DNA of 64,000 nucleotides from a virus. The DNA lies in IMG/VR virus record IMGVR_UViG_3300009788_000005, positions 21,759-85,758 of that record; one strand, given 5' to 3'. Shown one piece after another: positions 978 through 62,039 of the stretch (positions within the stretch are counted from its first letter, which is position 1; the number at the start of each line of letters is the position of its first letter). A program made the position numbers and the translations under genes. The notes below the pieces were generated by a model. It worked only from the letters and a program-made list of their open reading frames with translations, did no database searches and was not told where the DNA came from.

Positions 978-1066
978 AATTACACCTGTAAAATTTTTAC
1001 ACCTATAATAAAAAGGGGGAGAGTCCCCAGCAGACAATCCCCCTAAAAACTAACTTGTCATTACTC

Positions 1067-2038
1067 TTATATATCTGCTGTTTTCCTCTTTCTACCTGTA
1101 CTTCTTTTTGTCTCCTTAGGCTCCGGCTTATTTTCCTCATCCTCCTTAGGCTCCTCATCACCAAAATGTACCTTAAGTATATGTAAAGCTTCCTCAGTTT
1201 TTATACCCTTCTTAGCCTCATCCAAGAGCTTAGGTAATTTGTCTTCAGTCCACAACTCAGAATCCTCTATATCTGTCTGAAAATCGCTCCTACGAGTACC
1301 TACAAAATAATCACTAGCAGTAGATTTACCTCCTTTAGGTACTCTCTCTATATAAAAGTCTACTCCTTTGTACTGATTATATAGGGTATAGCCTACTTCA
1401 GTATCCCCTACTAAACCTTTCTTCTTACCTCCCCCAAAAATACCGGACTGACAAGACCAATTTATATTAATAATCTTAGCTCCCGAAGGATCAGGGATAG
1501 ACTTACCATCCTCAACATCTACTATCGGTATTACAGGCAACCACCTCTCATCATTACCCGCTCTATTAGTATGCCGAATCTTACTACCCTTACCATCATC
1601 TCTCTCGTTTTTTGAAAAAATAAACAGATCCCTATATATCTGTATATCGTCTGAATCTCCTCCCTCCTCCTCATACATTCCCGGTAAATCATCCAACTTA
1701 TCTTTCAAATATTCATATACCTGATCTACCGGCTCTCCTAAAGCTTTCTCAGAAACATGATAGCAAAACTTAGGCTTATTCTCATCATTAAGCCTATAAT
1801 CCTTTATACCGTACTTCTTAACAGGTAAAAATTCAATCTTACCATGAAGCTCTTGCGTAGCTGCATCCGGGGGTAACGCCCTAAAGTAATGTTTTACATT
1901 AGGGGCAAGATCTGATACATTCATGAAAATATTCTTACCCCCCCATCCTGATACAGCTCTTGATACAGATTCTTGGGCCTCAATTTCAGGAGTGTAAGTA
2001 ATCCCTTGCGGTTTTGGTGATTTTTTTCTTGTAGCCAT
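1067..2038 (-). CDS. Replication-module protein, possibly ssDNA-binding
   Basis: 323 aa ORF with acidic/charged C-terminus, located between the nuclease and the UvsY-like/PolA genes; function inferred from context only. Confidence 0.4.
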   Translation of the reverse strand: MATRKKSPKPQGITYTPEIEAQESVSRAVSGWGGKNIFMNVSDLAPNVKHYFRALPPDAATQELHGKIEFLPVKKYGIKDYRLNDENKPKFCYHVSEKALGEPVDQVYEYLKDKLDDLPGMYEEEGGDSDDIQIYRDLFIFSKNERDDGKGSKIRHTNRAGNDERWLPVIPIVDVEDGKSIPDPSGAKIININWSCQSGIFGGGKKKGLVGDTEVGYTLYNQYKGVDFYIERVPKGGKSTASDYFVGTRRSDFQTDIEDSELWTEDKLPKLLDEAKKGIKTEEALHILKVHFGDEEPKEDEENKPEPKETKRSTGRKRKTADI

Positions 2039-2151
2039 AAAGCGTTTAAATTTTTAAATTAATGATTAACGTTATTACACAATTAAATTGTATTAAACGT
2101 ATTAAATTATCAATACAAATGTACCCATTAAACTACTATAACCCAACCCCT

Positions 2152-2697
2152 CTAACCCATTCTTTCTATTCTCTCATTAGCATTAATAGACCTAGCAGTA
2201 TTCCAAGCCAAATCTACTATATTATAACTAGACCTTAACCTGTTTAGTGTTTGACTAACATTCAATATATTAGATCTTGAATTCTTTACCTCAGTTAATA
2301 CAGACAACATAGAAATAACTAATTTATCTGTAGGCATTTCGTTAGCCCTAGACTTAGATAAGTCATCTCTCCCTATCATATCCTCCATCCTCATGGTCTT
2401 AAATTGTACATACTGCTCGTTTACTATATCCAACTCCATCCTATTCAATTCATCTACAGCCCTTTCATAGTACAACACTAACCCCGATAAAAAAGACATA
2501 GTAGATAGAAAATCCATCATTCTTTCCTCTGTACCGTAACTCTGCAAATCAGCTAATATAGTATTATCGATAGTAACCGTACCTACTCTACCTCCATATT
2601 CTACAGCTACCTCATATACCTGTAAAAATTTTACATCTACTCCCTCTATATATATCCCTTTCATACAACTATATCTATCTCTTTTAAATCTTTCCAA
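2152..2697 (-). CDS. Putative UvsY-like recombination mediator
   Basis: 181 aa helical protein ending ARSINANERIE, resembling UvsY-like C-termini; adjacent to PolA. Confidence 0.4.
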   Translation of the reverse strand: MERFKRDRYSCMKGIYIEGVDVKFLQVYEVAVEYGGRVGTVTIDNTILADLQSYGTEERMMDFLSTMSFLSGLVLYYERAVDELNRMELDIVNEQYVQFKTMRMEDMIGRDDLSKSRANEMPTDKLVISMLSVLTEVKNSRSNILNVSQTLNRLRSSYNIVDLAWNTARSINANERIERMG

Positions 2698-5600
2698 TTA
2701 GGACCTACCTCTACATCACTTTTCATCTCCACATTATCAAATTCAAAACCAAAGTACTCCATATTAGGGGGATTATTGAAAGCCTTAAGCAACCACCTCA
2801 AATATAAATCCATTTGACTTCTCCTCACATACCCTAACCCCGAATCATGCACCGTATTTAACAAGTCTCCATCATACTGTAGTATACTCATTCTATCTTG
2901 ATGAACTATACAAGAGAATAAAAGCCCCTGACCACTACTACCTTGTACTGGACTATTAACCCCTATACGCTCATCATGACTCCTTAACCCAGGATCATTA
3001 GAATTAATAAAAGGAGTAAATCTTTTACTACCGTAAGCAGTTCTTACCCACCCATAACGATTAGCCTTAGATCTATATAACTCGTGCGCCTTAGGTATAG
3101 CAGGGTGAAGAGTATATAAATAATCTTTATGCTCCTTACGTGCTTGCTCCATGCTCATTTCTATCCCATACTGTATCTTAGAATACTCCCTATAACTTTC
3201 TGCACTCATCACATAAATCAATCCAAAATTCTTAGCCTTACCTTTATGCCTATGTATTTCTGCTGCCCCAATATCCTCCTCCAACATAATACAGTAATCA
3301 TCCAAAGAAACATTAGTACCACTACATGAAGCTAATACATGCAAATCAATATCATCAGCCAAAGCCTCTGCCATTGTATCTACTCTCCATAAATAAGTAC
3401 ACCACCTTAATTCTGATTGAGATAAGTCAGCCTGAAAAAACTCATACGGATCATCCTTATTAGTATCATACAAAGGAGTACAAAACATCCTCTTAATATA
3501 AGATACTGTTTCCTTAACTCTCTCTAAAGAAGTCCTACTAGGTATATTCTGTAAATTAGGATTATTACTAGTAATCCTCTGAGATCTAGCAGTACCGAAA
3601 GTACTATGTACCTTATCCTCATTATCCAAGCAAGATCTTATCCCCTCAAAATAAGTACTCTTAGCCGTAGACAATAATCTATACTCTAATACTCTTTCTA
3701 TCAATTTTGTAGGGTCCGGAAACAAACCTAATATATCCTTATTAGTAGAGGGATAAGGTCCTGTTTCCTTCTTCATCCTCTTAGTTATAGGATCTTTTAT
3801 GGTCCTGGTTACTACAGGTAATTCATAATTCAAACCCGCCTTACTTGTATAAATAAGTTTTCCTAATTGAGTAGGGGAATTAAAATTAATACTCTCAAAA
3901 TTATTAACCTCCCCAGACTTCAACTTATCTATTTTAATCTTCCAAGTTACAATATTTTTATAAGGATAGGAAAGGGAGTAGTAATTTTGATCTAATACCA
4001 ACTGTCTTTTTTCTACTACGTTAGAATAAGATTTAAGTAGTATATACTCATCCGTTTCTTTATCTTTTCTCTTACTATACACCTTATCCTCACTTTCCAT
4101 TTTCTGCTGAGATATGATCAACTCCTTTAACTTGATACCCTCAGCCTTAGATATCTTCTCTGTAAGATCCTGTATCATCTCTTGATCTATTCTATCTTTC
4201 TCATACCGAATAAATCTCTTTACCAAAGACATATTATTCAACTCTTCTGTAACCTCCTGTAATAACTCTGTACATTTACTAAGTCCCTCCTCTAAGACAT
4301 CCGTATCTACCGGCATACCCTTATATTCCATATCCCCCAATAACCGTAACTTAGAAGTTTCATAATTACGATATACCCTATACAACTTAGGATCTTTCAA
4401 TAACTCATACTCAAATAAATATCTAGCTCTTAAAGTTAAATCATTATCATTAGCACAATAATTACCCAATGATCGTAAAGAGTCGTTTGCATAATCCACC
4501 TCATCACCATACCCCTCAAACTCAGGATACAATTGAGGCGCTATTTTTTTAAGTCCATGAGGTACATCCTCCCGTATAGTATGATGCATAATTAAAGTAT
4601 CATCCAACCTACCCTCTACCTCTATATCTAATTGTCTCCCTATACTGAGATCAAACTTAATATTATGGGCAACCTTACGTATATCCTTCTTTTTAAATAT
4701 CTCCTCATTAATTTCAGGCAATAAAAAATCATGTAATAAATCAGGTATATGCTCTCTTTTAACAAACCCCCAATTACTAAACAAGGCATCTATAAATACC
4801 TTATTATCCTCCTCAACCATAACAAGCTCCCCATTATATCTTTCTAAAGGTTCACCATTCTTATACACATACATGTTTACTACCAAAATACCCTCCTCAT
4901 CTTTCTCCTGTACCGAGACATATTCAAGATCATCATCACAACCTATATTCCAAGGGCTTTCACAATGATATATAGGTATTATGTATCCACTTCCAACCTG
5001 AAAACTAATACCCAACATACTAGCCTGAGCCTTATGAGGATCAAGAGAATGATCTTTTATATCCTTAGATTTAGTAAGTCCTTTTAACTTAGGAAAAGTC
5101 TCAAAATCAAAACATATTTCTCCTGTAATATTACAGTAATCTATTAGAGGTTTTATATCTTCAGGAGTATTAATAAATACTGTTTCAGTCATCGTAGATA
5201 CAGACTCAAACCCCAATATAGCATTATAGCATAACCCTATAGCCTTCTCTCCTCTACGTAACTCTACCATTGACTCCGGATCATCCGGATACTGATATAA
5301 CAATTTAATCTTAAAGGATGAGATAAACCCCCAATAAGTTACATGTGTCCCTGGTTTATTTCCTAAAGAAATTACTTTTTTATTTAGCCTGTATAGTAGG
5401 TCTGTATGCCTACCAAACTTTAGGTACTCGGATACCTTAGCCCCAAAACCTACAACAGCATCCCAATCCCCCCATTCAAATCCCTCCCCCACAGAAACCA
5501 CATGCTCAAGAGAAACCACATACATTGAATCCTGTACTACCTGTCTTTGATCAGCCTTCAACAATTTATAATCCGTAACCCCATATATAGCCAATGATAA

Positions 5601-6201: not shown

Positions 6202-6250
6202 GAATGTAAAATTTTTACACCTCTATACTATTTTATATCCTAGAAAATTA

Positions 6251-6517: not shown

Positions 6518-8240
6518 AACCCTCAGGAATACCTTCTATATGCTCATATAGATAATTCATAACTGTACCATGCTCCTCCTTAGATAGCTCATCTATGAGC
6601 CTCTTACTACCCTCCTCCAAGATCTTATGCCCCTGATCAAAAAAAGCTAGTATATCAAATTTATAAGCATCCTTATTTTTCCTGGTACCTCTACCTATAG
6701 ATCCCTGTACTAAGCTTATCTCATTACCCGTAGATTCCCAATTAATCCATACCTCTATGTTAGGTATATTTAATCCTTTCTTTATAACCCTATTAGCAAC
6801 TAATACCCGAATATCTCCCGATCTAAATCTATCTAAAATAGCAGATCTATTTTTTGTCTTACCATCAATATATCCTACCCTATCAAATATAAGACCAAAA
6901 TCTAATATCTTTTCAAATAACCATCTACCGTACCCAATTCTAGCAGCCCCAAAATAAAATATTATTTGCTTATCCAGTAACTTAAGATCTCTAAGCTTTT
7001 CTACTACAATATCAAGCCTATCCATAGATCTATAAATATACCTATCCTTTACATAACCTACATTATTAGACCTAACCCCTCTAATATCATTAAGTAATAC
7101 ATGTACATGAGGCTCTAAGCTTACTCCTTTCTCAACATTATCAGCAGTTGTTACCTCATACCTTTGACTACCAAACAACCCCAATACGGTATACCTATTT
7201 TTACCCTTATCACTTTTTAACGGGGTACCTGAATACCCTATCTGTAATCCTGGACTTGTCTTACCTATAAAATCTAAAGACTGCTTACCCGTAAAAGTTT
7301 CACACTCATCATACATACACAAATTAAACCTAAACAAATCCTCTACTATTATCTTACTTGATCTTATCCTAGCTTCTACAGTTTGCACCATACATATAGT
7401 AAAGTCTGTAAAGGTATCCCATTTGGGTTGCTTAGTTATACCTTGAGACTTTAACTCCGCCCTAATCATAGCCTTATTTGCTGCCACAACCCCCACATCA
7501 AACCCCATACCTAAGTATTCTGCTACAGCTTTAGCACACAATATAGCATCCCTAAAAGGCATCAATACTTTAGCATGTACTACATTCAAAACAAAACACG
7601 CTGCCAAAATAGTCTTCCCAAAATTTACCGCCAAATCAAGCAATACAGAATTAAAATATTGCCCCATCTGTTTTCTGTCTGTAAAAGTATGCCTAACCTT
7701 ATCTATAACAGGTTTTTGATCTTCTCTAAGTTTGTAATCTCCTACTGAGTATACCGGATCTTTTGTTAACCTAATAAAATTTCTCCTTTGGTCTTTAATA
7801 TCATACAATATCTCTCCATACTCTGTAACTATATCAACAGACTGTAGCAACATTAAAACACCTCTCAATAACCCGGATCTAAACTTTAGTCTTCTACCCG
7901 CAAAATACAATCTAAATACCGATGAATATCCGTCCGACATTTGCCAAGCCTTAAACTTTAACCCTAACTTAGTCCTACTATCATCAGTATACTGATACAT
8001 ATTTATATACTTACCAGTAATATGGTAACATAAATAGTTTTGAAAAAATACAGACTCTACATCAGGAGCTAAAGACTTTAAATGATCCTCATTATTATAA
8101 TCGAAACCACACTTATTAACCTTCTCCCAACTCCTCACATAATCGTTATAGGAATAGTAATCTCTTATATCCTCTAACACACTTTTAGGCTCATCATCTC
8201 TTTCAAGTATAACCCACTGATTTGTTAAATATATTACCAT
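6510..8240 (-). CDS. Superfamily 2 (UvsW/DEAD-like) helicase
   Basis: LREDQ Q-motif, AVNFGKT, YDECE, GYSGTP, GLNIP, QGSIGRGTR. Confidence 0.9.
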   Translation of the reverse strand: MVIYLTNQWVILERDDEPKSVLEDIRDYYSYNDYVRSWEKVNKCGFDYNNEDHLKSLAPDVESVFFQNYLCYHITGKYINMYQYTDDSRTKLGLKFKAWQMSDGYSSVFRLYFAGRRLKFRSGLLRGVLMLLQSVDIVTEYGEILYDIKDQRRNFIRLTKDPVYSVGDYKLREDQKPVIDKVRHTFTDRKQMGQYFNSVLLDLAVNFGKTILAACFVLNVVHAKVLMPFRDAILCAKAVAEYLGMGFDVGVVAANKAMIRAELKSQGITKQPKWDTFTDFTICMVQTVEARIRSSKIIVEDLFRFNLCMYDECETFTGKQSLDFIGKTSPGLQIGYSGTPLKSDKGKNRYTVLGLFGSQRYEVTTADNVEKGVSLEPHVHVLLNDIRGVRSNNVGYVKDRYIYRSMDRLDIVVEKLRDLKLLDKQIIFYFGAARIGYGRWLFEKILDFGLIFDRVGYIDGKTKNRSAILDRFRSGDIRVLVANRVIKKGLNIPNIEVWINWESTGNEISLVQGSIGRGTRKNKDAYKFDILAFFDQGHKILEEGSKRLIDELSKEEHGTVMNYLYEHIEGIPEGCG

Positions 8241-9206
8241 TTAGAATTTATTAATTTTAGGTATTGATTTCTTCTTACTCTTTACTTCCTTCTTTACTTT
8301 ATCCCTGTATTCTATGTACCTATCTATAGCACCCGGTCCGCACAAATAACCAAGCTCTATATCAATATTTCTCTGACCCGAAAAATTATTATTGTAAACT
8401 AATAACTGAGATTCTATCCATAAAGGTATATACTTTTCACTAGCTTTAGCTGAGGAGTCTTTAGCCGTAGATCTAGCCTCCATCAACAATTCAAAAGCTA
8501 TTAAAAACTTATACCTATACTTTATATTATTACTAAATATATCCGTAGACCTATCCGTAATTTTCATAAAAACACCGATCATACTTAAAGTATAGTCCTT
8601 ATACTTATCATGAGCTACCTTATAATATTCACTCAATATAGATCCTGCCTCAGATTGTACATTAGCATCTAAATACGCCTTAATAGAAAACTTCCTTTTG
8701 TTACGTAATAACGGAGTAACTATATCAATATATACCTTATAAAACTCTACCCTGTTTTTAGCAGTATTGGTAGGTCCTATATCCTTCCAGATATCCTCTA
8801 CTACTTTCCATAAAGATATTAGATCATTATAAGCAGCCGTACCTACTACAAACCTCTTAATAAAAGATCTATCCTGCTTCAGTATAACTACCCTAGCCTC
8901 ATAAACAATATCATTTAATATCTCCACATAATGCTTAGGAGCTTTAGATACCCTCTTTAATATCTCCGCCTTAGATACTTTACCCTTACCACTAATTTGT
9001 ATAGTAATTAAATCATCAGGTATAGTTGCATAACCTTCAGATTTCTTTGCCAACTCTTTAACAAATCTTTCTACCTGGGTAGGTGTAAAATTTTTACACG
9101 CCTTAATCATTGCAGCCTGTACAGATTTCTCCTGTAGTATCAACTTAATAGTAGCCTCAACAGTCAATATTACTACAGGATTCTTATCTGATTTACTAAC
9201 AGTCAT
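8241..9206 (-). CDS. Hypothetical replication-module protein
   Basis: 321 aa ORF abutting the helicase; carries an internal copy of the 15-bp palindrome. Confidence 0.65.
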   Translation of the reverse strand: MTVSKSDKNPVVILTVEATIKLILQEKSVQAAMIKACKNFTPTQVERFVKELAKKSEGYATIPDDLITIQISGKGKVSKAEILKRVSKAPKHYVEILNDIVYEARVVILKQDRSFIKRFVVGTAAYNDLISLWKVVEDIWKDIGPTNTAKNRVEFYKVYIDIVTPLLRNKRKFSIKAYLDANVQSEAGSILSEYYKVAHDKYKDYTLSMIGVFMKITDRSTDIFSNNIKYRYKFLIAFELLMEARSTAKDSSAKASEKYIPLWIESQLLVYNNNFSGQRNIDIELGYLCGPGAIDRYIEYRDKVKKEVKSKKKSIPKINKF

Positions 9207-10448: not shown

Positions 10449-10595
10449 ATCTGTAAAATTTTTACACCCCCTACCAATACTATTTATTTCTCTTCTAACA
10501 GCCTAAAACTTACCTACCCTTATCTACATACCAAAATTACTATATCCCTTAACACACCTAACCTAGTAACCTACTGGCTATAATACACCTGTATA

Positions 10596-11289: not shown

Positions 11290-12441
11290 TTAACTTACTC
11301 CCCCTCCATCAGGATTTTCCTGAAAGTTTGCAGCCATTATAAGGGCATGGGCCATTTCTTCCGCTGAGTGTGACTGCACTTGAGCATCCATCATAACCTG
11401 CACAATATCATCTACAAGTCCCCCTTTAAACCGCTTACCGAAAGGAACATCTTTCTTTTGCCTTTCTACCGTAGATTGTTCATCCTGGATCATATTTACC
11501 AGATTACCGCACTCCTCTGCAAAGCTGTAACGCTTTTTAGTTGTAGGGGTTGCAGCAGCTTCTACATGCTTAGCAGTAACTTTAATTTTACCTTCTCCAG
11601 CAGCTTTTTCCTGAGCAACCTTAGCAATCTCAGCAGCAGATTGTTTTTCTCCTTCTTCCTGAGCAAGTACAGCAGCCTTAGAGGCAGCAGCCAAACTCAA
11701 CCAACCCTCCTCAATACCTTTAAGCAATTTCTTATCCCGTCCTGCACGGAGATAATAATGTACTGCCGTCCTACCCATACCTACCTGCTTAGCAATATCC
11801 ACTACAGACATACCAAGATCATCTTCCAACTTAGCCAAGTTCACACACTTCTGATAATTTGACCACTGCTCATGAGTATTATTACTTACTTGCCGGAGTA
11901 ATAGCATTGCTTCCCCCTCAGGACCTACAGGCTTTTCTACAATCTGTACCGCAATCAAATTCTTATCCGCATCACTTCCAGGCCAAACAGCCATCTTAAG
12001 TATCACACCTGCCTCATCCTTAATAGTCCCCTTCATGATTTCATCAAAGCCATACAGACGACGGAAACCTTCAACAAGCTTAAGCTTAAACTGATTATTA
12101 CCCCTGGCTTTTATATCCGTAACATAAGCCTCTACGGCAGTAGTCTGACCATTAACCCCCAAAGATCGTACCCACTCAGTAGGAGTAGTTTTCTTTACCT
12201 CATTCTTACCTCCTCTTGGATTATCATTATAAGATACGATAATCTGAGCGCGAGGTATCAAAATAATCATACCCGGCTGAGGTTTTTCAGGTAAACCTAC
12301 AGTAAGTAATCCCACAATAGGGGTATCCTTCTTAGCGGGAGATTCTTTGGCAGCTCCATTACCTTTGGAATTCTTAGCAATATTCTTTGCTACACCCTTA
12401 GTAGCGGGTTTTTCTTTTGTAGATGTTTCAACTTTTACCAT
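11290..12441 (-). CDS. parB: ParB/Noc-family CTPase-HTH DNA-binding protein
   Basis: NPR (box I), SLGVNG, LVEGFRRL (GxRR arginine patch), SNN, HTH GMSVVDIAKQVGMGRTAVHYYL; no parA in window. Confidence 0.85.
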   Translation of the reverse strand: MVKVETSTKEKPATKGVAKNIAKNSKGNGAAKESPAKKDTPIVGLLTVGLPEKPQPGMIILIPRAQIIVSYNDNPRGGKNEVKKTTPTEWVRSLGVNGQTTAVEAYVTDIKARGNNQFKLKLVEGFRRLYGFDEIMKGTIKDEAGVILKMAVWPGSDADKNLIAVQIVEKPVGPEGEAMLLLRQVSNNTHEQWSNYQKCVNLAKLEDDLGMSVVDIAKQVGMGRTAVHYYLRAGRDKKLLKGIEEGWLSLAAASKAAVLAQEEGEKQSAAEIAKVAQEKAAGEGKIKVTAKHVEAAATPTTKKRYSFAEECGNLVNMIQDEQSTVERQKKDVPFGKRFKGGLVDDIVQVMMDAQVQSHSAEEMAHALIMAANFQENPDGGGVS

Positions 12442-12518: not shown

Positions 12519-12552
12519 GATTTTTCAAAAAAGCGTAAAATTTTTACACTCT

Positions 12553-15079: not shown

Positions 15080-15144
15080 ACCCAAAGATACCTAACCCCA
15101 GGTAATTAACAAACCTCCAAAACTATCTTCAATGTGTAAAAATT

Positions 15145-15726
15145 TTACAGATGATGAGGGTGATCATCTACATCAAACCTACCTCCAAAATCAGGTTTAA
15201 CTGTACCCCAACTACTGAGAGCAGAGCTATCATTCTCCTTTAATAAACAATCATCTGTAGGCAGACAAGGATACAAACTCTTATTATCTTGTAGCCATAT
15301 CTTAAACATCTCTAAAGACTCTTCCACAGCTATCTTCAAACCAGATACAAAACCCTCAAACTGTCCCTCTTCGAATTTCTGAGGAAACTTTAACCCCTCT
15401 TTTGTAAGTATAGCATATCCTGACTTACGTACATACAAATATTCCGTACCATCAACTATAACCATAGTAGCCATATCTATAAGATCTATCCACCTCTGCT
15501 CTATAGCTACTTGATTATCTTCAAAATCCTTAATAGCATCACATATCTCCTTAAAACAATCCCCTAAAGGCTGCTTCAAATATTTTATCTGGGCACCATC
15601 AAGATGCTTAGTAACTTTATTAGTATCTAAATGAGCATCAAGTAAAGTTGACTGATCAAATAAACACTTCAGGGTTATAAAAAAACACCTGGAAGCACAC
15701 TTAGTACATCCTCTTCCTGTTGACAT
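15145..15726 (-). CDS. Putative head-tail adaptor
   Basis: Directly downstream of portal; AQIKYLKQPLG pattern recalls Bacteroidota phage adaptors. Confidence 0.5.
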   Translation of the reverse strand: MSTGRGCTKCASRCFFITLKCLFDQSTLLDAHLDTNKVTKHLDGAQIKYLKQPLGDCFKEICDAIKDFEDNQVAIEQRWIDLIDMATMVIVDGTEYLYVRKSGYAILTKEGLKFPQKFEEGQFEGFVSGLKIAVEESLEMFKIWLQDNKSLYPCLPTDDCLLKENDSSALSSWGTVKPDFGGRFDVDDHPHHL

Positions 15727-18163: not shown

Positions 18164-18751
18164 TTATGCAGTAACAGAATCTACCAGGATATCCGTAGTA
18201 GCCTCATCAGTATCAAATACCTCCAGAAAGATATCGGGTACATCATCACCTGTAGCAATGAATGTAGTAGGGGTAAACTCGGTAGTACCTGTACCTCCCC
18301 TGATCTCCGTAAAATGGATATCACCCTTTCTACCTGTCATATACCAACGATTTGTACCCTTCTCCTTCCACAGAAATACTACTTCCTGACCTACAAAAGT
18401 CTTAACTACACAATAAAATTTTCTATCTTTAACATCAACAGAAAAATTTATTGTTTCTTCAAAAGTAGTAGTACCTGTTTCAGGGTCAAATATCAACCCC
18501 CAAATATGTTCTATACTCTTATCCTTAGTAGTAACCTTAAAGAAAAGGGGAGCAACAGGCAATACACCGTCTTGAGTTACAATATCTGTAATCTTAGCAT
18601 CATTACCTCCCCCGGCTAAGCAATCATCTTCAGTAACAGTTACGAACTTCAAACACGATACCCGTAAATCAAAAGCCCCTGCTTTTTGCGCTCCACAAGA
18701 TGCAGCACTAGTAGCAATCCCATCCCTTATATCACAACATTCCTTATCCAT
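18164..18751 (-). CDS. Putative major tail (tube) protein
   Basis: 195 aa, follows capsid; N-terminal Cys pattern and beta-rich acidic composition like Bacteroidota siphovirus tube proteins. Confidence 0.55.
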   Translation of the reverse strand: MDKECCDIRDGIATSAASCGAQKAGAFDLRVSCLKFVTVTEDDCLAGGGNDAKITDIVTQDGVLPVAPLFFKVTTKDKSIEHIWGLIFDPETGTTTFEETINFSVDVKDRKFYCVVKTFVGQEVVFLWKEKGTNRWYMTGRKGDIHFTEIRGGTGTTEFTPTTFIATGDDVPDIFLEVFDTDEATTDILVDSVTA

Positions 18752-18823
18752 GATTCAAAAATTTTAGGTGTAAAAATTTTACATCCAGGACTATAACCTT
18801 TATAGTCCTGGATGTTTTTAATA

Positions 18824-20329: not shown

Positions 20330-20403
20330 AACTTTATTCTTTAGAGTTAATTAAATCCGTAAAAATTTTACACACCCCAACGGACTCTAATTAACAGGAT
20401 ATA

Positions 20404-21938: not shown

Positions 21939-21970
21939 CAAAAATATGTAAAATTTTTACACCCTCTAAG
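21939..21970 (-). promoter_or_regulatory. Head-operon promoter with the palindrome in its spacer
   Basis: TTAG ... TGTAAAAATTTTACA-TATTTTTG upstream of ATG 21918. Confidence 0.55.
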
Positions 21971-22858: not shown

Positions 22859-25800
22859 TTAAAATTCTGATTTTCTTACTTGCCTGTCTAATTTTAATTG
22901 TTGCTTTTTCTGCTCTATAAGAGAAAGGGTTAGTTCTTGTTCATCTATAGCAGTAATTACTTTCTCTACACTATCCTTAACCCCCTGTATATCTTGACCT
23001 AAATTATCAAATCCTCTACGTAATTCCGCAAAAGCTACAGATGTGGATGCCTCACTTATACCTGTAGGTACTGCTCCTCCCGTTTGAAACTTATACTTAG
23101 GAGCTTTAACTGGTACTCTAGGTATATTGGCTACTACCCCTGATCCTGAAGATTTAACCATACCAAATAAACTAGACATATCCCCATAAGGCTTACCCTG
23201 CTTTCTCCTGATTCCTTGGTGATTCATCCACGATAATAAAGGATAAAATAATTCCGTAGACCACCTATTATTCTCATACTCTCCTCCCTCTACTTCTATA
23301 GGTATTCCTCCCCTACTATGCCTAGGTCCTACGTGCATCCCCCCATATCCTTTTCTTCGTTTAGGTGGTCTAGTAGCACTTCTAGCTGAGGTTCTACCTC
23401 TTATGGGGGTAGGTCCCCCATCAGCAAACAATAAGCCCGTATCTCCCCCCAATTCAAAACTTGTAGCACTAGCTGTTAATGATCTAATACTAGCTATACC
23501 CGCAGCTACCGCCGCTATAATAGAAATAATAGCGGCTATATTTCCTGGGAAAGGTATCTTAGCCCCCTCTGATACAGCCTTAATATTATTACTAAGAGTG
23601 ACAATATTATTTCTAATTATCTGAGCATTATCTATAACAGCTTGTATAGCCTGTATTTTCTTCTCAAAAGCTATAGCTGCTTCTCTTCTTTGCTCTGCCT
23701 TTTTTATAGCTGCTGCTACTCTCTTTTCTTCGTCTGCCCTCCTCTTATTTTCAGCCGCAACTTGAGCATTTCTCTGAGTATTTAAAGATGCTAATAAACT
23801 AGCCTCAGTTTCAGCATCTAATCCCTGCTTTAATATATTACGCTCCCTAGCTGCAAACTCCTGTTCCAACTGAGTTAACTGATTCTCATGCCCCTCTTGT
23901 CTACGGGCATCTCTTTCATTTATTAAAGCAATCTCCTCATCTACCCCAAACTCTAATATCTCTCTAATAGATCCCGCAAAATTAACAAGACTATCTAAAG
24001 CCTGCCTTTGAAATTCTAAAGTTTTTTCAATCTCCTCCCTCTTTCTTTCCTCTTGCTTAGTAACTTCATCTATCTCACCGTCCCGTATATCTAATAATAT
24101 TGCTATTCTTTCCTGCTCCAGTTTTAAAGTTTCCTCAGCACTTAACCCCACTATCTTTAACTGATCCTCTACAAACTGTAACGAAGCATCTAATCTTTTT
24201 TTATCAGCCTCTAACTCTATTTCAAATTTCTCATCCTCAATATCCTCTATCCGATCTACAGTTAATTGCCCAGCAATATCTATAGCATTTAATTCTGCTA
24301 GTCTTGCTGCCTCTATTCCTTTAAGTCTCTCCTGCAATACTAAATCTAATGCTTCTGATTCTGCCTCTATTCTTTTTTGTGCTGCACCCCCTCTAGCTTT
24401 AACTACTCTTTCATCAAACTCAAGATTTAATTTTGAAAAAAGTAAAGCCCTTTCCTCCTCTGTAACTTGTAGTATAGTGGATTCGTCTACTCCCTGCTGT
24501 ATTAAAGCTTGTCTTTCTTTCTCAAACCCTTCTAACTTAATATTAAGTCTACCTAATGCCTGCGCTCTTAATACCTCTAATCCTTCGATAGATTTCCTTC
24601 CCCCTGCCTCCTCAACATCAGATAATTCTCTCTCTTTTGCTATTCTCTTATTAAGAGAATCTAAAGTCTTAGCTAACTGATCTGCCTTTTTACTATCTGC
24701 CTTAGTGTTAGATACTATTCTTTTAGTATTAGTAGTTAGCACCCCAGTCAAACTACCGTAAGTCTGATTAATCTGCTGTAATATTTCCCTACTTTTACCT
24801 ACACTAGTAGTTAATAATCCTAACTCTCGTTGCTGTACTATAGTAGAGTTGGTAGTTACTCTCTGCTGTACTGCTAACTCAAAGGAAGCTTTGCCTGCAC
24901 CCCCAAACTGAGTACTTACATCATCCCACTGAGATCCTAACCTCTCAGCAGTAACTTCAGCATCAAATGCCTCCCTGGATTGTGTAGATAGACTTGTAGC
25001 TAAATTTATAGAAGCTTTCTGAGAATCGCTTAATCCATTTTCAAAATCATCTACAGCACCTACATACGAATTAAGCACTCCCTGGGAAGCTGTAAAATTT
25101 TTACTAAGCTCAACATTAGCATTCTTTAATTCATTAACAGTCTTAATAGATCTATTAAGAGATTGTACAAATATATCTGTTATCTCTGTATCCTGATCTA
25201 TATCACCTAATCTAGCTATCTCAGAGTTAACAGCATCTATGTCAGTTCCTATACCTAATGTTTGAGTCTCTAAAGCATCTCTTAAATCGTTAAAATTTCC
25301 AATAGTATTTTTTACCCCCTGCCCTAAAACATCATCTCCAAAAACTCCACCTAATCCTCTTACGCTAATTGTAGCACCTTTAGCAGCATCAGATACTAAG
25401 TCAGTTCTACCAGATAACTCAGCAAACCTATTTATTAAGGCATCAATAGGATCTCTTAAACCATCTAACTCCTTAGCAGAATTCCTTAGCTGTATTCCAG
25501 ATAACCCAGTAACTTCCTGTAGCTCTTTGGATACTTGGAGTTGATCCTTCAAAACATCTCCCAACTCTTCCTCTATAGCCTGCTTCTTTAACTTGGCTAT
25601 TAAATTAGCTTCTATAGCCAAGTTAACCGCCAATTGGGCAGATTCAATTTCCTTGAGATTACTTGACTCCGTTAAAAGATTAGGAAGATACTCCCCATAC
25701 TGATCATTGATAGCATCAATAAGATTAGATCTCTCAGCAGACCCCTCATTAGCATTCTTTAAAGATTCAAATAATAAATCTACCTGAGCAACTTCCGTAC

Positions 25801-27715: not shown

Positions 27716-27790
27716 TATATGCCTGTAAAAATTTTACACACCCCAACAGACATAAAAAGTACTAACTCTACTACTTCATATATATAAAAT

Positions 27791-31127: not shown

Positions 31128-31148
31128 GACTGTAAAAATTTTACACCT

Positions 31149-33860: not shown

Positions 33861-33882
33861 AAGGTGTAAAAATTTTACAGGT

Positions 33883-36749: not shown

Positions 36750-36762
36750 ATCTGTAAAATTT

Positions 36763-37413
36763 TTACACCTTATTAATACGCTTATCCCTATAAACTCTCA
36801 TAGTACCTATAGCTAATTCATGTACTGCATTATTTCTTAAATCCGAGCTATGCCCTGGTACGTGACATACATTTATCAAATAATGCTTATCTGTTTTTTT
36901 AATCTCCCATACCTTATTCCACAGCTCTTTATGCTCTATCACCCCCCCATCAGATTTCTCCCAATCCTTAAAATACCATGACACCAAATAAGAATTATAG
37001 GCATTAACTACATATAAAGAATCACACATTATTCTTAGCATAGTATTAGGCTTATACCTTTTATGCCAACATAATACCCTATATAATCCTAATGCTTCTG
37101 TCTTACCTGTTTTCCACCCCTCCAAAGCCTCAGCCTCCTCATATATACATTCCCTTCCTTGACCTATATAAACCCTAAGCCCATAAGCCCCAAATATTCT
37201 TCCTTCATGCTCCTCATAATTACTATTTAATATGTGGCTACTACCATCTGTATAAGCAACACATATTACAGGAGTAGCCGGTTTCTCCTTAAACCTAATT
37301 GCCGGATGTACTATCCTTTTAGGTAAGGGTATATCCCCAGGAAAATCTACATCCTCTTCTCTCCTGGGTCTATCAGGATCTACCCACAACTTTTTAGTAT
37401 CTCCTTCATTCAT
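36763..37413 (-). CDS. rnhA: Ribonuclease HI
   Basis: YTDGS, E, CDSLYV, HKELW, HVPGH..NNAVHELA. Confidence 0.85.
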   Translation of the reverse strand: MNEGDTKKLWVDPDRPRREEDVDFPGDIPLPKRIVHPAIRFKEKPATPVICVAYTDGSSHILNSNYEEHEGRIFGAYGLRVYIGQGRECIYEEAEALEGWKTGKTEALGLYRVLCWHKRYKPNTMLRIMCDSLYVVNAYNSYLVSWYFKDWEKSDGGVIEHKELWNKVWEIKKTDKHYLINVCHVPGHSSDLRNNAVHELAIGTMRVYRDKRINKV

Positions 37414-38436: not shown

Positions 38437-38447
38437 TTGTAAAAATT

Positions 38448-39141
38448 TTACACATAGTAAGTAAATAATTTCTCTAGCCTATGATCATAATTTTCACCTT
38501 TTTTATTTATAGTGGTTTGATGATTTATTTCTCTAACACACTCAAAATCTTCAGGAGCATTATACTCAGATACATAAACTCTATGCCCTTCCTTAGCTCT
38601 TTCCCTACACCATACCCAAAAAGATTTATGATCAAAAGGATATGCATAACCTAAAACACCCTCATAGGGTTTATCACAATAAATAATACTATTAGAGGGT
38701 ATGACCAACCCTCTATAATCTCCCGCATAAAATTGTACTCCTTCTAAATTGTTTGCTTGTCTTAATAAATTATCTCTACCCTCCCTGGAATAATTTCTAC
38801 GATCATCCTTAGCATAACCTCCCCACCACTTACCCCCGAAGGAGCATAAAAAAACCTACAAATCCTACTAGATGATTAAGGTAATTACCCTTATTACTTT
38901 TAATAGAGTAGTACTCCCCTCTAGAAACATCTGTAGGGGGTACCCAACCATCTCTAACAGCTATAAGTAAAGCTATAAGGTACATATGATTATCATTACC
39001 TATCCTATTCCCCGTAACCTTATCGATCATATTAGCACCTCCTACAAAAGGCTCTACATAATATTGATTGTGTCTACGACCTAATAAAATTATCCGTAAT
39101 AACTCTTTAGCTAATCTGTTCTTACTCCCTACGTACTTCAT
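38448..39141 (-). pseudogene. Dam-like (D12 class) adenine methyltransferase split by one extra T in a T7 run
   Basis: MKYVGSK...YVEPFVGGAN in 38830-39141; removing one T at 38848-38854 gives GFLCSFGGKWWGGY...IIYCDKPY continuous to stop 38448. Confidence 0.8.
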
Positions 39142-39368
39142 ATATCTGTAAAATTTTTACACATCTCTTCAATTTCTCCCCACTCTCTCAACTCTTCCGA
39201 AAATATTTCCCCTGCCTGTTGTAGGGTTATTAACCCCTCATCAAAAGCCCTCTTAAAATCCTCCTCACTCAATTCATCATCCTCTTTACGTGCATAGTAA
39301 CAGCACTCCTTAGCAGCATCTTTAATAGATGCTATAACTAATTCTAATAAATCATAATCAGATCTCAT
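39138..39368 (-). CDS. Small acidic hypothetical protein
   Basis: 76 aa; one palindrome upstream and one in its last codons. Confidence 0.55.
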   Translation of the reverse strand: MRSDYDLLELVIASIKDAAKECCYYARKEDDELSEEDFKRAFDEGLITLQQAGEIFSEELREWGEIEEMCKNFTDI

Positions 39369-39484
39369 ACCTACTTGTAAAATTTTTACACATCCTTATT
39401 AATCTCAATGTACACATAAACAACCCCTCCAACAAGACTAATGCCGGCCCAGGCATGTTACCAGAATAAGAAGTTACAAAGTAT

Positions 39485-42385: not shown

Positions 42386-42457
42386 AGTGAGGTAAAGGTA
42401 ATGTTTTTAAATGGATTATCCAAGACTGTAAAAATTTTACACCCTATACCCAAATAA

Positions 42458-42489
42458 TTAGGATTTCTAATAACCTTACCTTATCTTTG
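42458..42489 (+). promoter_or_regulatory. Extended strong promoter (32 bp)
   Basis: TTAGGATTTCTAATAACCTTACCTTATCTTTG; 31/32 identical to the minus-strand copy at 50525-50556. Confidence 0.75.
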
Positions 42490-42790: not shown

Positions 42791-42812
42791 TAACCTGTAA
42801 AATTTTTACACA

Positions 42813-45343: not shown

Positions 45344-45349
45344 CTCTAT

Positions 45350-45880: not shown

Positions 45881-45897
45881 TATACCTATAATTTATA

Positions 45898-47415: not shown

Positions 47416-47439
47416 GCCTGTAAAAATTTTACACCCCTA

Positions 47440-49702: not shown

Positions 49703-49780
49703 AATAACATAAGATTAATAATCATTTAAACAAATATCGGTAATAAACCTAATATTTGCAATGAATATTCTGTAAAATTT

Positions 49781-50152
49781 TTACACCTTCCTATATACCT
49801 GTATTCCGAATAATCTTAAAAATCTCAGTACCGATATCTTTATTCTTCTTCTTACCGATCTACCTAATAAGTAGATACGGGTATTTCTTCTTTTCTTCAG
49901 GGACTTTCTCAGCAGTCCCCCCCTATTTCTACCCCGGTATGATCTCAGCCTGTGTAATACCTGTAGATCAATTAGCACCCCGGCTAATGCCCGTATCTCG
50001 TCATCATCTTTAGAAACATTATACCCCTGGTAGTAAGATACATCCCTATCCTTCTTCCTACTATCTATCATATCCTCTATGATCTCTAATCTTCCTCTAA
50101 GACTATCAGGCATATCTTTAATAGTAGCAATATTGTATTTACCATACTTCAT
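49781..50152 (-). CDS. Basic hypothetical protein
   Basis: Arg-rich C-terminus; stop supplied by the palindrome. Confidence 0.55.
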   Translation of the reverse strand: MKYGKYNIATIKDMPDSLRGRLEIIEDMIDSRKKDRDVSYYQGYNVSKDDDEIRALAGVLIDLQVLHRLRSYRGRNRGGLLRKSLKKRRNTRIYLLGRSVRRRIKISVLRFLRLFGIQVYRKV

Positions 50153-50524: not shown

Positions 50525-50556
50525 CAAATATAAGGTAAGGTTATTAGAAATCCTAA
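50525..50556 (-). promoter_or_regulatory. Extended strong promoter (32 bp)
   Basis: TTAGGATTTCTAATAACCTTACCTTATATTTG. Confidence 0.75.
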
Positions 50557-50594
50557 TAAGGTTGTAAAATTTTTACACCTCCCTCAATCAAATA

Positions 50595-53165: not shown

Positions 53166-53208
53166 AACTGTAAAATTTTTACAGGTTAATAATTGTTATA
53201 ATGCTATT

Positions 53209-53743: not shown

Positions 53744-53794
53744 AATTTCTCTGTCTTATAAATAAAGTTTATTTTAGGGTGTAAAAATTTTACA

Positions 53795-54872: not shown

Positions 54873-55060
54873 TGTTGTAAATTTTTGTTTAAATAAGGTA
54901 CTACAAAACTATGACTTTCTTACCTATGATCCTAATATATCTCTTATTAAAGTTATCCACAATAGTATACACTTGTATGTATACTAATAAATACGATCTA
55001 GTATACAGTTAAGATCCTATCTATTAATCATCAATAGGTTACATGTGTAAAATTTTTACA

Positions 55061-56795: not shown

Positions 56796-56824
56796 ACTTA
56801 TCTACCTGTAAAATTTTTACAGTC

Positions 56825-58350: not shown

Positions 58351-58382
58351 CAAAGATAAGGTAAGGTTTTGATATATCCTAA
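58351..58382 (-). promoter_or_regulatory. Extended strong promoter (32 bp)
   Basis: TTAGGATATATCAAAACCTTACCTTATCTTTG. Confidence 0.75.
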
Positions 58383-58415
58383 TAGTGGTGTAAAAATTTT
58401 ACACCTAGTTACCCA

Positions 58416-58450: not shown

Positions 58451-58479
58451 TAACCAATCGATAATTATGAAAGCTAAAG

Positions 58480-58551
58480 TGGATCTTATAGGATTTGAAC
58501 CTATGGCCGTCGGCTTATGAGGCCGATGCTCTACCCCTGAGCTAAAGGTCC
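58480..58551 (-). tRNA. tRNA with CAU anticodon (Ile2-like, or Met)
   Basis: GGACCTT-TA-GCTC AGGGGTA GAGC-A-TCGGC CTCATAA GCCGA-...-ATAGG TTCAAAT CCTAT-AAGATCC-A; one C4.A69 mismatch; CCA not encoded. Confidence 0.85.
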
Positions 58552-58978: not shown

Positions 58979-59010
58979 CAAAGGTAAGGTAATGTTTTAT
59001 AAGATCCTAA
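58979..59010 (-). promoter_or_regulatory. Extended strong promoter driving the tRNA-like RNA
   Basis: TTAGGATCTTATAAAACATTACCTTACCTTTG. Confidence 0.75.
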
Positions 59011-59045
59011 TGCCCGTGTAAAATTTTTACACATTATCCCAAAAT

Positions 59046-59682: not shown

Positions 59683-59683
59683 A

Positions 59684-59785: not shown

Positions 59786-59801
59786 ACCAATATACTTTTA
59801 A

Positions 59802-60277: not shown

Positions 60278-60324
60278 ACCCAAATATACCTATTCATAAT
60301 GACAATGCAAACACTGTAAAAATT

Positions 60325-60558
60325 TTACAGATCTGGTATGTAGCAACATCCCGGAGTACCTATCTCAAAAGGTATACTGTAATAAATCATAACTCCTACT
60401 GCGGGTACTTTACTAATAGCCAAAAATGCTTCCTTTACCGTATTAAAATCTTCATCTGAAACTATCAGTTTTATAGGATCTTTATTATACTTAACCTTAT
60501 AAATTTCTATAGTACTAGTCAGTATATCACATACCTTAAATGCCTCTTCTTTTGTCAT
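60325..60558 (-). CDS. Hypothetical protein
   Basis: 77 aa; stop supplied by the palindrome. Confidence 0.55.
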   Translation of the reverse strand: MTKEEAFKVCDILTSTIEIYKVKYNKDPIKLIVSDEDFNTVKEAFLAISKVPAVGVMIYYSIPFEIGTPGCCYIPDL

Positions 60559-61171: not shown

Positions 61172-61172
61172 A

Positions 61173-61475: not shown

Positions 61476-61498
61476 ATCTGTAAAATTTTTACACGTTA

Positions 61499-61726
61499 TT
61501 ACCCAAACGATTTCCTAGCATCTATCTCATTATCAAATAATCTACATCCCCAGGTTCTAGGATTTTCTATCTGATAATCCTCAGTATCTAATGTTACCCT
61601 AGGATGTAATACACATGCATCATAAAATGACGTTGCTACCTGCTCACCTATCTTGAAAGCCTTACCTCTAGCTCCCTGTACTACATACCCCTCTGACCAT
61701 ATCTCATATAACTGTATAGTTCTCAT
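61499..61726 (-). CDS. Conserved-looking small phage protein
   Basis: EIWSEGY...WGCRLFDNEIDARKSFG. Confidence 0.65.
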   Translation of the reverse strand: MRTIQLYEIWSEGYVVQGARGKAFKIGEQVATSFYDACVLHPRVTLDTEDYQIENPRTWGCRLFDNEIDARKSFG

Positions 61727-61739
61727 ACCTGTAAAATTT

Positions 61740-62039
61740 TTACACCCTACCCATCAAAAGACTAACCGTTTTTGCTGCTATCTTTATACACTGCTCAAGG
61801 TCCACAGACCCGGTAGTAAATATATCAAGTTCATAATCCTTTATATCAAAACCATCAGTATTACCTACCCAGGCCAAATATAAGTCTGATACAATATCTA
61901 CCGAATATCCATTAAATGTAACCATACCTATACCTTCCTCTAAAGTTGATTTGATTGTTATCACAGCCTTACCGTGAGTCCAATTCTTAACCAGTCTGTA
62001 GCAATCTCCTTCGAATGATAATGTAGTAAATAGATCCAT
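61740..62039 (-). CDS. Hypothetical protein (paralog of 62478-62783)
   Basis: Shared Y.L.K.W, NG, DI.DY, AKTVSL. Confidence 0.65.
   Translation of the reverse strand: MDLFTTLSFEGDCYRLVKNWTHGKAVITIKSTLEEGIGMVTFNGYSVDIVSDLYLAWVGNTDGFDIKDYELDIFTTGSVDLEQCIKIAAKTVSLLMGRV

Follow-up and report, generated by a model that had tools for sequence, protein, structure and literature searches.

A palindrome dispersed over a complete phage genome as a candidate operator for a phage-encoded ParB/KorB-like regulator

Why should one perfect 15-bp palindrome be repeated, at short and regular intervals, along a whole viral chromosome? The question is raised by a stretch of 64,000 nucleotides (the window below), bases 21759-85758 of the IMG/VR record IMGVR_UViG_3300009788_000005, which is 85,758 bp long, has end repeats and is classed as complete by CheckV. 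An earlier note, made from the letters of the window, described the palindrome TGTAAAAWTTTTACA as a lattice and preferred a site that organises the chromosome to an ordinary operator. We believe that the palindrome is a site for a phage-encoded regulator acting on transcription, with a ParB/KorB-like protein as the prime candidate for its reader, and we would give this answer about an even chance of being right.

The exact palindrome occurs 29 times in the window, between 987 and 61744, and is found in none of 100 dinucleotide-preserving shuffles of it. Up to two mismatches being allowed, there are 33 copies, namely the 29 exact ones, four with one mismatch (starting at 12534, 20358, 25091 and 32330) and none with two; the shuffles then contain 0.55 copies on average and 3 at most. 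Over the whole record, 44 copies are exact, a reversed-pattern control giving 0, and five more have one mismatch, which makes 49. The lack of two-mismatch copies in the window, together with the genome-wide ratio of 44 exact copies to five, indicates strong selection on the sequence of the palindrome. The pattern scan reproduces what the earlier note had counted: 33 copies (29 exact) at the same positions, a central base that is T in 19 and A in 14 of them on the plus strand, and a largest gap in the window of 4,623 bp (42796 to 47419). Its statement that the copy number is far above chance also stands, since the background composition fails to explain the count. The array is thus confirmed as real and statistically extreme; it covers the whole genome, and a second lineage has such an array too.

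The word “lattice” proves to be justified, because the coefficient of variation of the spacing between the 49 sites lies below that of all null models. It is 0.60, compared with 0.97 for uniform placement and 1.07 for random gene junctions, and a value this low was reached in 0 of 5000 simulations under either model; when the null model is restricted to junctions with gaps of 10 nt or more, P = 0.011. The largest gap in the genome is 4.6 kb, 7.9 kb being expected, and the density is about one site per 1.75 kb. The spacing statistics that had been proposed as a check therefore came out as the lattice claim implied: the sites are more regular than under the uniform or the junction model.

Where do the sites lie with respect to genes? 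The open reading frame (ORF) calls agree with the earlier description in that nearly all genes are on the minus strand. Our gene model is a crude call (the longest ATG ORFs, with four starts adjusted). By this model, 43 of the 49 copies are intergenic, though the genome is about 88% coding; 23 copies lie 1-11 nt ahead of a start codon, 20 are intergenic without an adjoining start codon, and 4-6 are inside ORFs. The spacings between site and start (n=23) are 1, 1, 3 (eleven times), 4, 4, 7, 7, 8, 8, 9, 9, 9 and 11 nt. On the other side stop codons are as near: the distance from stop to site is often within -5 to 6 nt, most frequently 3 nt, and in six copies the TAA within the palindrome is itself the stop codon of the upstream gene. 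A copy is present in 41 of the 126 gene junctions, and 53 of the 85 empty junctions have gaps shorter than 15 nt.

A second group of copies is associated with promoters. Bacteroidota promoters have the consensus -33 TTTG, -7 TAnnTTTG. About ten strong promoters of this type (TTG...TAnnTTTG) are present in the genome, and seven of them have a palindrome upstream. The distance from the end of the palindrome to the end of the -7 TTTG is 38 bp in four of these, each with a different spacer sequence, 48 bp in two (both on the plus strand, with a common spacer) and 58 bp in one; in other words, four copies sit 6 bp upstream of the extended promoter and the others +10 and +20 bp beyond. The promoter belongs to an expression cassette of about 80 bp that recurs on both strands (Table 1) and consists of the extended promoter TTAGGAT-N8-AACMTTACCTTAYCTTTG, a conserved leader and the first codons ATGAAAA. 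It looks like a mobile or duplicated regulatory module and is reminiscent of the promoter-stem-loop cassettes that exist in T4-type phages. Elsewhere, the copy at 21947 is within the spacer of a promoter-like site, and the copy at 53169 is downstream of one, just before a start codon. Five intrinsic terminators have a copy 4-20 nt downstream, and the copies at 58389 and 59017 stand between a terminator and a promoter. Each of the two credible plus-strand genes lies between two copies, the first ahead of its promoter and the second 5 or 15 nt past its stop codon. The majority of copies are far from any host-type promoter. Upstream of the start-adjacent copies, a TTTG ending 6-14 nt away was found 8 times (3.3 expected) and the full TAnnTTTG once (0.7 expected), and the host-type -7 element is not a general feature there.

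Is the array peculiar to this phage? The best homologue of its large terminase (TerL) is 44% identical. A TerL alignment search retrieved 72 IMG/VR loci, and a scan of IMG/VR with the single TerL protein gave no match. Among the 48 TerL loci of at least 9 kb, only L127, L142 and L158 carry a recurrent odd palindrome with 6-nt arms; it is TAAAGT-W-ACTTTA, in 11, 6 and 7 copies, respectively (10-17 kb each). Four other TerL loci carry three copies of some even palindrome. In whole records, the sister palindrome TAAAGTWACTTTA occurs 36 times in G001 (62.8 kb), 27 times in G002 (80.5 kb) and 6 times in G003 (10.5 kb), with 0 for the control. G001 and G002 have only 7 proteins in common with this phage (blastp). 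A check of related phages for a co-varying motif, suggested earlier, has thus revealed a different palindrome in the same arrangement in a distant lineage. The palindrome of G001 is usually 15 bp long (31 of 36 copies) and reaches 17 bp in 16; about 17 copies abut a start codon, the ATG following the 13-mer core after 2 nt in 16 of the 36. Start-codon distances in G002 are looser, from 2 to more than 30 nt, with A-rich stretches of 10-30 nt between the copy and the ATG, and 9-11 of its 27 copies are in ORFs. Several G002 copies coincide with a host-type promoter, either between its -33 and -7 elements or where transcription is predicted to begin, and these are classical repressor positions. 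Site positions differ between G001 and G002.

A quick TerL tree does not make this phage the sister of the L127 clade and requires 4 changes for the four lattice rows, no improvement on shuffled labels; one member of that clade, L143, shows no lattice over 20.9 kb. The core of the sister motif is present in phage contigs binned with a Flavobacterium metagenome-assembled genome (MAG) and with a Cyclobacteriaceae MAG; in the latter, 30 of its 36 copies are on two phage-like contigs. The lattice is therefore a recurring, lineage-specific trait of a phage group and tracks the phage, not the host. Two of the relatives are classed as provirus by IMG/VR. An exact-motif scan of IMG/VR gave, among the matches listed, contigs with one site each; a 1.1-kb AT-rich metagenome contig matching the motif and the promoter start was judged a chance match.

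Other repeats were seen in the related loci. L132 has, at 12540-12800 (-), just downstream of TerL, eleven tandem 24-bp repeats (ACTTCCGAATTG followed by 12 variable bases), which are iteron-like and unrelated to the palindrome. L156 and L160, which have no lattice, carry a different palindrome, ACAAAAATTTTGT, just upstream of conserved host-type promoters; its AAAAWTTTT centre is also that of the present motif. There is also a pair of Cys-rich proteins (CxCxxCGK) of about 150 aa encoded on the minority strand, in this genome at 18494-18943 of the record (+, outside the window) and in G002 at 78846-79340 (-). In a pairwise comparison, this zinc-ribbon protein (149 aa) and its G002 counterpart are weakly similar (33% over 81 aa, E 4e-4). 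A palindrome precedes the gene or its operon in both phages, and the Atlas neighbours are phage clusters of unknown function.

Is the palindrome read as DNA or as RNA? The dyad continues into the flanks: of the 49 copies, 44 have a purine at -3, 45 a pyrimidine at +3, 40 a G or C at -1 and 41 a G or C at +1. With flanks the site is about 21 bp long, R-n-S-TGTAAAAWTTTTACA-S-n-Y. Within the individual copies the flanks pair as independence predicts (12 observed and 13.9 expected at the first position, 20 and 21.0 at the third); since they extend the dyad but pair no more than by chance, no longer stem is selected. The centre of the palindrome on the coding strand is A in 26 copies and T in 22. 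Transcripts should seldom include the copies that precede plus-strand promoters or separate a terminator from a promoter, and yet these copies are exact; promoter offsets that differ by ten base pairs are meaningful only on a double helix. Both points favour a site acting at the DNA level, which is our view, and a double-stranded DNA site for a dimeric protein, as had been proposed, fits these observations.

An RNA-level element at the translation start, be it a small hairpin or a site for a sequence-specific protein (a RegA-like translational operator, a start-associated enhancer in a host that does without Shine-Dalgarno pairing, or a processing site), would account for the ribosome-binding-site position before 23 genes, which resembles that of the start-associated sequences (SAS) of Cluster K mycobacteriophages (PMC3203893). 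It would also agree with the 13 of 15 palindrome bases that are A or T, suiting an unstructured leader, with the bias of the coding-strand centre to A in G001 and G002, and with the folding z-scores of -1.7 to -2.8 in four of five 41-nt contexts. However, the putative stem has only six, mostly A-U, pairs, the five contexts fold at -2.8 to -6.4 kcal/mol, and the fifth folds no better than its shuffles. A stable stem with compensatory changes, the mark of an RNA hairpin, is not what we find: the fold energies are weak, the flanks show no excess pairing or covariation to lengthen the stem, and the arms are invariant and hence uninformative on compensatory change. Copies upstream of transcription starts, plus-strand promoters included, and between terminators and promoters would be out of place, the ten-bp steps would have no meaning in RNA, one copy is at a convergent gene end with no start codon near, and the loose start distances and in-ORF copies of G002 do not suit a translational signal. 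We consider an RNA element quite improbable.

Which protein could read the site? The candidate is the 383-aa protein of Table 1. Its Atlas features are at 0.96 to ParB/KorB helix-turn-helix clusters, and its ten best named matches belong to one clan, although a third of shuffled proteins likewise reach all ten in one clan. In a six-frame search, HTH_ParB scores 17.4 bits in this phage (below the 22.6-bit cut-off), 25.3 in G001 and 33.9 in G002; ParB_N scores 34.9 bits in the G001 protein and was not found in the 383-aa protein. The latter aligns at 19-21% identity to the homologues above the cut-off, and NPR, GxRR and the helix-turn-helix are common to all. A profile of five family members matches solved structures of ParB (E 5e-9), Noc (1e-8) and KorB (3e-8). 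Membership of the 383-aa protein in the ParB/KorB family is thus probable, judging from sequence comparison. A ParB-like gene is present in all three lattice genomes (this phage, G001 and G002) and in the Flavobacterium-binned contig. The only homologue of the 383-aa protein, P0122 on a 94.8-kb contig, is 55% identical to it; a search of viral and metagenome contigs with P0122 turned up no relative. The case that the ParB-like protein reads the palindrome is circumstantial, and a 292-aa winged-helix protein (39485-40363) may be considered as an alternative reader, as may the 149-aa zinc-ribbon protein.

We presume the following mechanism. A dimeric phage protein would bind the site of about 21 bp in double-stranded DNA at the boundaries of expression units, these boundaries being the free DNA into which sites can be squeezed in a tightly packed genome. 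At strong host-type promoters, the bound protein would occupy a single helix face a short way upstream, or else the spacer, or a position a short way downstream; placed between two cistrons, it would form a symmetric, orientation-independent roadblock or insulator; and paired sites would fence off the two antisense genes. The 383-aa protein could, as KorB does, load as a clamp and slide, in which case 49 sites would cover the genome. The analysis establishes the sites with their placement, regular spacing and symmetry, the sister motif of a distant lineage and the existence of a ParB-like gene; the binding of a protein, the identity of the reader and the effect (silencing, insulation or activation) are what we infer from the arrangement. 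It is tempting to go further and propose that a CTP clamp of the ParB/KorB type serves as a genome-scale switch, in which some fifty even loading sites at cistron borders would let a single protein coat the genome and silence or insulate all phage units together, in either direction, and co-evolution of site and protein gives rise to lineage-specific palindromes. We offer this extension tentatively and regard it as rather doubtful.

A number of facts weigh against such a regulator or against the proposed reader. The proximity to start codons is tight, which pulls toward the promoter and RNA explanations, and weaker promoter-like matches are out of phase with the palindrome (offsets of 8, 34, 34, 47 and 52 bp). 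At 987, at 18769 and at 4392 of the record, the palindrome stands between an upstream terminator or hairpin and a start codon, with no host-type promoter; this order is explained less well by the repressor model than by the promoter model. The central base of the sister motif is A on the coding strand in 27 of 36 copies (G001) and 20 of 27 (G002), i.e., there is a mild strand asymmetry. No integrase family was found in the 40 proteins scanned for families (these include all proteins of at least 290 aa and a minority of the small ones; the 591-aa DnaB-like helicase and the 539-aa portal-like protein were compared with PHROGs only), which leaves stoperator-like prophage silencing unsupported. 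The 383-aa protein has no Pfam match at E 0.01, its single sequence gives no PDB match, and its fold model, from a five-sequence alignment, is poor (pLDDT 41.7, pTM 0.34). HTH_ParB is also present in 8 of 21 TerL relatives with no lattice in about 20 kb around TerL and hence is not lattice-specific; most of these ORFs are longer (285-561 aa). The three sister-motif phages resemble one another in the recognition helix and differ from this phage, and yet this is not real covariation, because these three phages are closer overall and the conserved residues are typical of the family.

Could the palindrome be a promoter itself? It might be the core of a phage-specific middle or late promoter. The RNA polymerase using it would be either that of the host, assisted by a phage factor, or an overlooked phage enzyme, and the mRNAs would have very short leaders or none. 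Bacteroidota translate without Shine-Dalgarno pairing and could use such mRNAs. The 23 start-adjacent copies, eleven of them at exactly 3 nt, the 2-nt gap to the ATG at 16 of the 36 copies of G001, the A-rich stretches before the ATG in G002 and the three terminator-palindrome-start arrangements would all be natural for a promoter. A density of about one copy per 2-3 genes is like that of T4 late promoters, and the 856-aa and 726-aa proteins, which have no family match, could hide a polymerase. However, a perfect palindrome with symmetric flanks is directionless, while the genes nearly all run one way; the copy 2 nt past the TerL stop would fire antisense into a plus-strand gene; and 4-6 copies are inside ORFs. 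The phased copies 6 bp upstream of strong promoters are also unexpected, as tandem promoters need no phasing. No sigma factor or RNA polymerase family was found among the 40 scanned proteins, and the DxDGD motif is absent from the 856-aa protein. On balance, a promoter core seems to us unlikely.

The chromosome-organiser proposal is that the palindrome acts like parS, NBS, SBS or matS in partition, compaction, membrane tethering, packaging or protection, has no part in gene expression and lies at gene boundaries merely where 21 bp fits. Even spacing suits it, and so does a probable ParB/Noc/KorB-family protein encoded by the phage. The packing of the copies is symmetric against stops and starts, so the link to start codons need not be functional, and the site positions are not conserved between G001 and G002. 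It leaves unexplained the promoter offsets of 38, 48 and 58 bp, which are kept with different spacers, the copies in promoter spacers or at transcription starts in this phage and in G002, and the bracketing of both antisense genes. Linkage to expression units is not what parS, NBS, SBS and matS sites are known for. With placement tied to promoters, cistron boundaries and antisense genes, and with 23 of 49 copies abutting starts, the preference of the earlier note for an organiser over an operator was not borne out, and we think a pure organiser improbable. By analogy, the placement pattern is that of KorB operators and stoperators.

Who is the host, and might the factor be its own? We infer a host among Bacteroidota from the promoter type and from TerL likeness. 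The nearest TerL genes in species genomes are in Raineyaceae, Crocinitomicaceae, Flavobacterium and Cyclobacteriaceae MAGs, at 38-43% identity. A 353-aa protein encoded between tail genes (27852-28913, -) matches the C-terminal sorting domain of type IX secretion at E 1e-5, with 26.1 bits for a cut-off of 27, and this match agrees with such a host. Among GenBank phages, there was no megablast match to 12 kb of the window and no TerL tblastn match at E 1e-20. If the phage exploited the site of a host transcription factor, the likeness of TGT-N9-ACA to half-sites of several bacterial regulators would be understandable, and the motif might differ between phage lineages because their hosts possibly differ. 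However, the exact palindrome is in only 22 of 401 sampled Bacteroidota genomes, with at most 3 copies each, similar to the reversed-pattern control, although exact matching is a weak test because host sites are usually degenerate. Abundance in host genomes had been named earlier as a fact that would speak against a phage system; in these genomes the palindrome is at chance level. The five MAGs with related TerL genes have 1 copy in total. The sister motif is in phage contigs of both Flavobacterium and Cyclobacteriaceae MAGs, with most copies in the latter lying on phage-like contigs, and the published Bacteroidetes SOS boxes (GGA-N5-TCC and CTAA-N5-TTAG; PMC8565304) do not match. A host factor has a very slight chance of being the answer.

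The repeats may also mark boundaries of gene-cassette exchange or recombination hot spots, with binding secondary. Eleven pairs of copies are less than 720 bp apart, each pair enclosing a small gene or two; the recurrent cassettes comprise promoter, leader and first codons; and in Cluster O mycobacteriophages one gene insertion is flanked by a 17-bp direct repeat (PMC4351075). On the other hand, exchange alone does not require a perfect dyad, a centre restricted to W, symmetric flanks or even spacing, and 15 bp is generally considered short for homologous exchange. We regard exchange as a most improbable primary role.

Has anything of this kind been described? The earlier note knew of no described phage system with the motif. 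For the motif sequence this holds: our literature search (supplementary files being outside it) found no phage paper with the motif strings and nothing relevant on conserved palindromes in Flavobacterium phages. It does not hold for the kind of array, which is described in Cluster O mycobacteriophages (PMC4351075). Among the published systems, the Cluster O palindromic repeats are the closest parallel. Corndog and its relatives have 34 invariant copies of the 17-bp TGTTCGG-NNN-CCGAACA genome-wide. They lack an integrase, encode a protein with a ParB-like domain and have 8-9 strong SigA promoters; the function of the repeats is given as unknown, and the authors predict a dimeric DNA-binding protein for them (PMC4351075). 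Both arrays comprise more than 30 invariant 7-bp inverted repeats, mostly intergenic and with an orientation-free centre, across a siphophage genome of 70-86 kb with strong host-type promoters (about ten here), a ParB-like protein (a probable one here) and no integrase (here, in the 40 scanned proteins). Our array is thus of the Cluster O type, which is a descriptive class, the sequences and hosts being unrelated. The two differ in host phylum, in sequence and in spacer (3 bp there, 1 bp here); about a third of the copies are coding there, while here 43 of 49 are intergenic and 23 abut starts; and the copies are denser at one genome end there and evenly spaced here. The Cluster O repeats are also not closely linked to start codons, unlike the Cluster K SAS, and are symmetric, unlike stoperators (PMC4351075).

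The SAS/ESAS repeats of Cluster K precede start codons by 3-7 bp, and some of them include the stop codon of the preceding gene (PMC3203893); our palindrome resembles them in both respects. The SAS are asymmetric, have one orientation and a Shine-Dalgarno core and are confined to non-structural genes, whereas the palindrome is symmetric, occurs in all modules and is found upstream of promoters as well. It is not an SAS by these marks: 23 of 49 copies have the spacing, but there is no AGGAG core, and the 20 intergenic copies without a start codon do not conform. The array combines the symmetry of Cluster O with SAS-like start-codon proximity. The stoperators of Cluster A, at which the bound repressor halts the elongating polymerase (PMC9283540), are likewise dozens of identical sites in short intergenic gaps genome-wide (their repressor in L5 is gp71). 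They belong to temperate phages, are 13 bp long and asymmetric, point in the direction of transcription and are bound by a monomer; the palindrome here is perfect, neither its flanks nor its coding-strand centre shows the asymmetry of a stoperator, and no repressor was identified among the proteins scanned.

KorB of plasmid RK2 is, in our view, the best mechanistic analogy for copies near to and far from promoters with a possible ParB-like reader. This ParB-family CTP clamp loads on palindromic operators whose distance upstream of a promoter is either 4-10 bp or from 45 to over 1000 bp, and it slides to silence remote promoters (PMC11790492). The likeness lies in dispersed palindromic sites, some just upstream of promoters (6 bp here, in four copies) and others farther (here at +10 and +20 bp, with most copies far from any host-type promoter), and in a ParB-family helix-turn-helix protein encoded by the element, here a probable member by sequence. 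RK2 differs in having far fewer sites (twelve) and the clamp-locking partner KorA, and KorB sites are not known to adjoin start codons. The resemblance to ParB-parS is limited: few clustered sites at one centromere and a ParA partner there, 49 even sites over 85.8 kb here.

Table 1. Palindrome copies, promoter cassettes and candidate reader. Window coordinates unless marked as genome (record) coordinates; a dot in the strand column denotes a palindrome.
Feature	Position	Strand	Context
Exact palindrome	987..1001	.	13 nt after T-run of intrinsic terminator; 9 nt before ATG of 1045-aa SMC/SbcC-like gene; no host-type promoter between
Exact palindrome	2621..2635	.	25 nt past DNA polymerase stop; ATG 5 nt downstream, or in-ORF if longer start is real
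Exact palindrome	6205..6219	.	ATG at 6201, 3 nt away
Exact palindrome	9084..9098	.	Within ORF 8241-9206
Exact palindrome	10452..10466	.	ATG at 10448, 3 nt away
Candidate reader, 383-aa protein, probable ParB/KorB family	11290..12441	-	NPR, GFRR patch, helix-turn-helix; presumed link to palindrome
One-mismatch copy	12534..12548	.	4 nt past DnaB-like stop; 16 bp upstream of promoter-like site for ParB-like gene
Exact palindrome	15135..15149	.	TAA is stop of 15145-15726; promoter-like site 22 nt downstream
Exact palindrome	18769..18783	.	Hairpin directly before; ATG at 18751, 17 nt on
One-mismatch copy	20358..20372	.	Intergenic; ATG at 20329, 28 nt on
Exact palindrome	21947..21961	.	In spacer of promoter-like site TTAG...TATTTTTG; 28 nt before ATG of S49 peptidase gene
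One-mismatch copy	25091..25105	.	Within tape-measure ORF
Exact palindrome	27724..27738	.	GTG start of tape-measure gene 8 nt on
Exact palindrome	31131..31145	.	Stop 3 nt before; ATG at 31127, 3 nt after
One-mismatch copy	32330..32344	.	Within ORF 31594-33171
Exact palindrome	33865..33879	.	Stop 3 nt before; ATG 4 nt after
Exact palindrome	36753..36767	.	TAA is stop of upstream gene; ATG 3 nt after
Exact palindrome	38438..38452	.	ATG at 38436, 1 nt after
Exact palindrome	39147..39161	.	ATG at 39141, 5 nt after; overlaps upstream ORF end
Exact palindrome	39376..39390	.	ATG at 39368, 7 nt after
Exact palindrome	42427..42441	.	Divergent region; 16 bp upstream of strong plus-strand promoter (48 bp to TTTG end)
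Strong Bacteroidota-type promoter cassette	42458..42489	+	Drives plus-strand 92-aa gene 42512-42790
Exact palindrome	42796..42810	.	Convergent junction; 2 nt past TerL stop, 5 nt past stop of plus-strand 92-aa gene
Exact palindrome	47419..47433	.	Stop 6 nt before; ATG 3 nt after
Exact palindrome	49771..49785	.	TAA is upstream stop; next ATG 68 nt on
Promoter cassette	50525..50556
Exact palindrome	50563..50577	.	6 bp upstream of cassette 50525-50556 (38 bp to TTTG end)
Exact palindrome	53169..53183	.	3 nt before ATG of 856-aa gene; terminator and promoter-like site upstream
Exact palindrome	53780..53794	.	Abuts upstream stop; next ATG 36 nt on
Exact palindrome	55046..55060	.	4 nt past T-run of strong terminator
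Exact palindrome	56807..56821	.	Stop 3 nt before; ATG 11 nt after
Promoter cassette	58351..58382
Exact palindrome	58389..58403	.	Terminator 18 nt upstream; cassette 58351-58382 6 bp downstream
Promoter cassette	58979..59010
Exact palindrome	59017..59031	.	Terminator 20 nt upstream; cassette 58979-59010 6 bp downstream
Exact palindrome	60315..60329	.	TAA is upstream stop; promoter-like site 4 nt downstream
Exact palindrome	61479..61493	.	Stop 5 nt before; ATG 3 nt after
Exact palindrome	61730..61744	.	TAA is upstream stop; ATG 3 nt after
Promoter cassette (genome coordinates)	443..474
Promoter cassette (genome coordinates)	8230..8260
Promoter cassette (genome coordinates)	18440..18471	+

The remaining features of the genome are as follows. 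Family searches identified a tape-measure protein, a family-A DNA polymerase, DnaB-like and other helicases, a portal protein and the large terminase, with further matches to a primase, an SMC/SbcC-like ATPase, a RecD/Pif1-like helicase and an S49 prohead-type peptidase. The minus strand, which carries almost all ORFs, has 24% G and 12% C. The plus-strand GC skew is -0.26 to -0.44 in every 4-kb bin of the window, with no switch; such uniform skew matches one-directional transcription and perhaps one-directional replication. ARAGORN predicts one tRNA-Met (CAT) at 58479-58551 (-). A 168-aa protein encoded outside the window (1841-2347 of the record, -) matches the circularly permuted YpsA SLOG family at E 3e-37.

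What does the array mean in a general context? Genome-wide arrays of perfect palindromes are already on record, unexplained, in Cluster O mycobacteriophages. The present case adds a host from another, unrelated phylum and a sister lineage in which a different palindrome is arranged alike. It also brings statistical evidence that the spacing is even, fixed distances to promoters and start codons, and a concrete candidate reader, probably of the ParB/KorB family. A descriptive oddity is thereby turned into a testable hypothesis, namely that phages control or insulate all of their transcription units through one dispersed operator. This would bear on the organisation of gene expression in Bacteroidota, which skip Shine-Dalgarno pairing, and the palindrome would supply a compact, orientation-free regulatory part for the genetics of these bacteria. 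If true, the idea of a clamp switch could also account for the Cluster O repeats, a puzzle for 20 years, since those mycobacteriophages encode a ParB-like protein as well.

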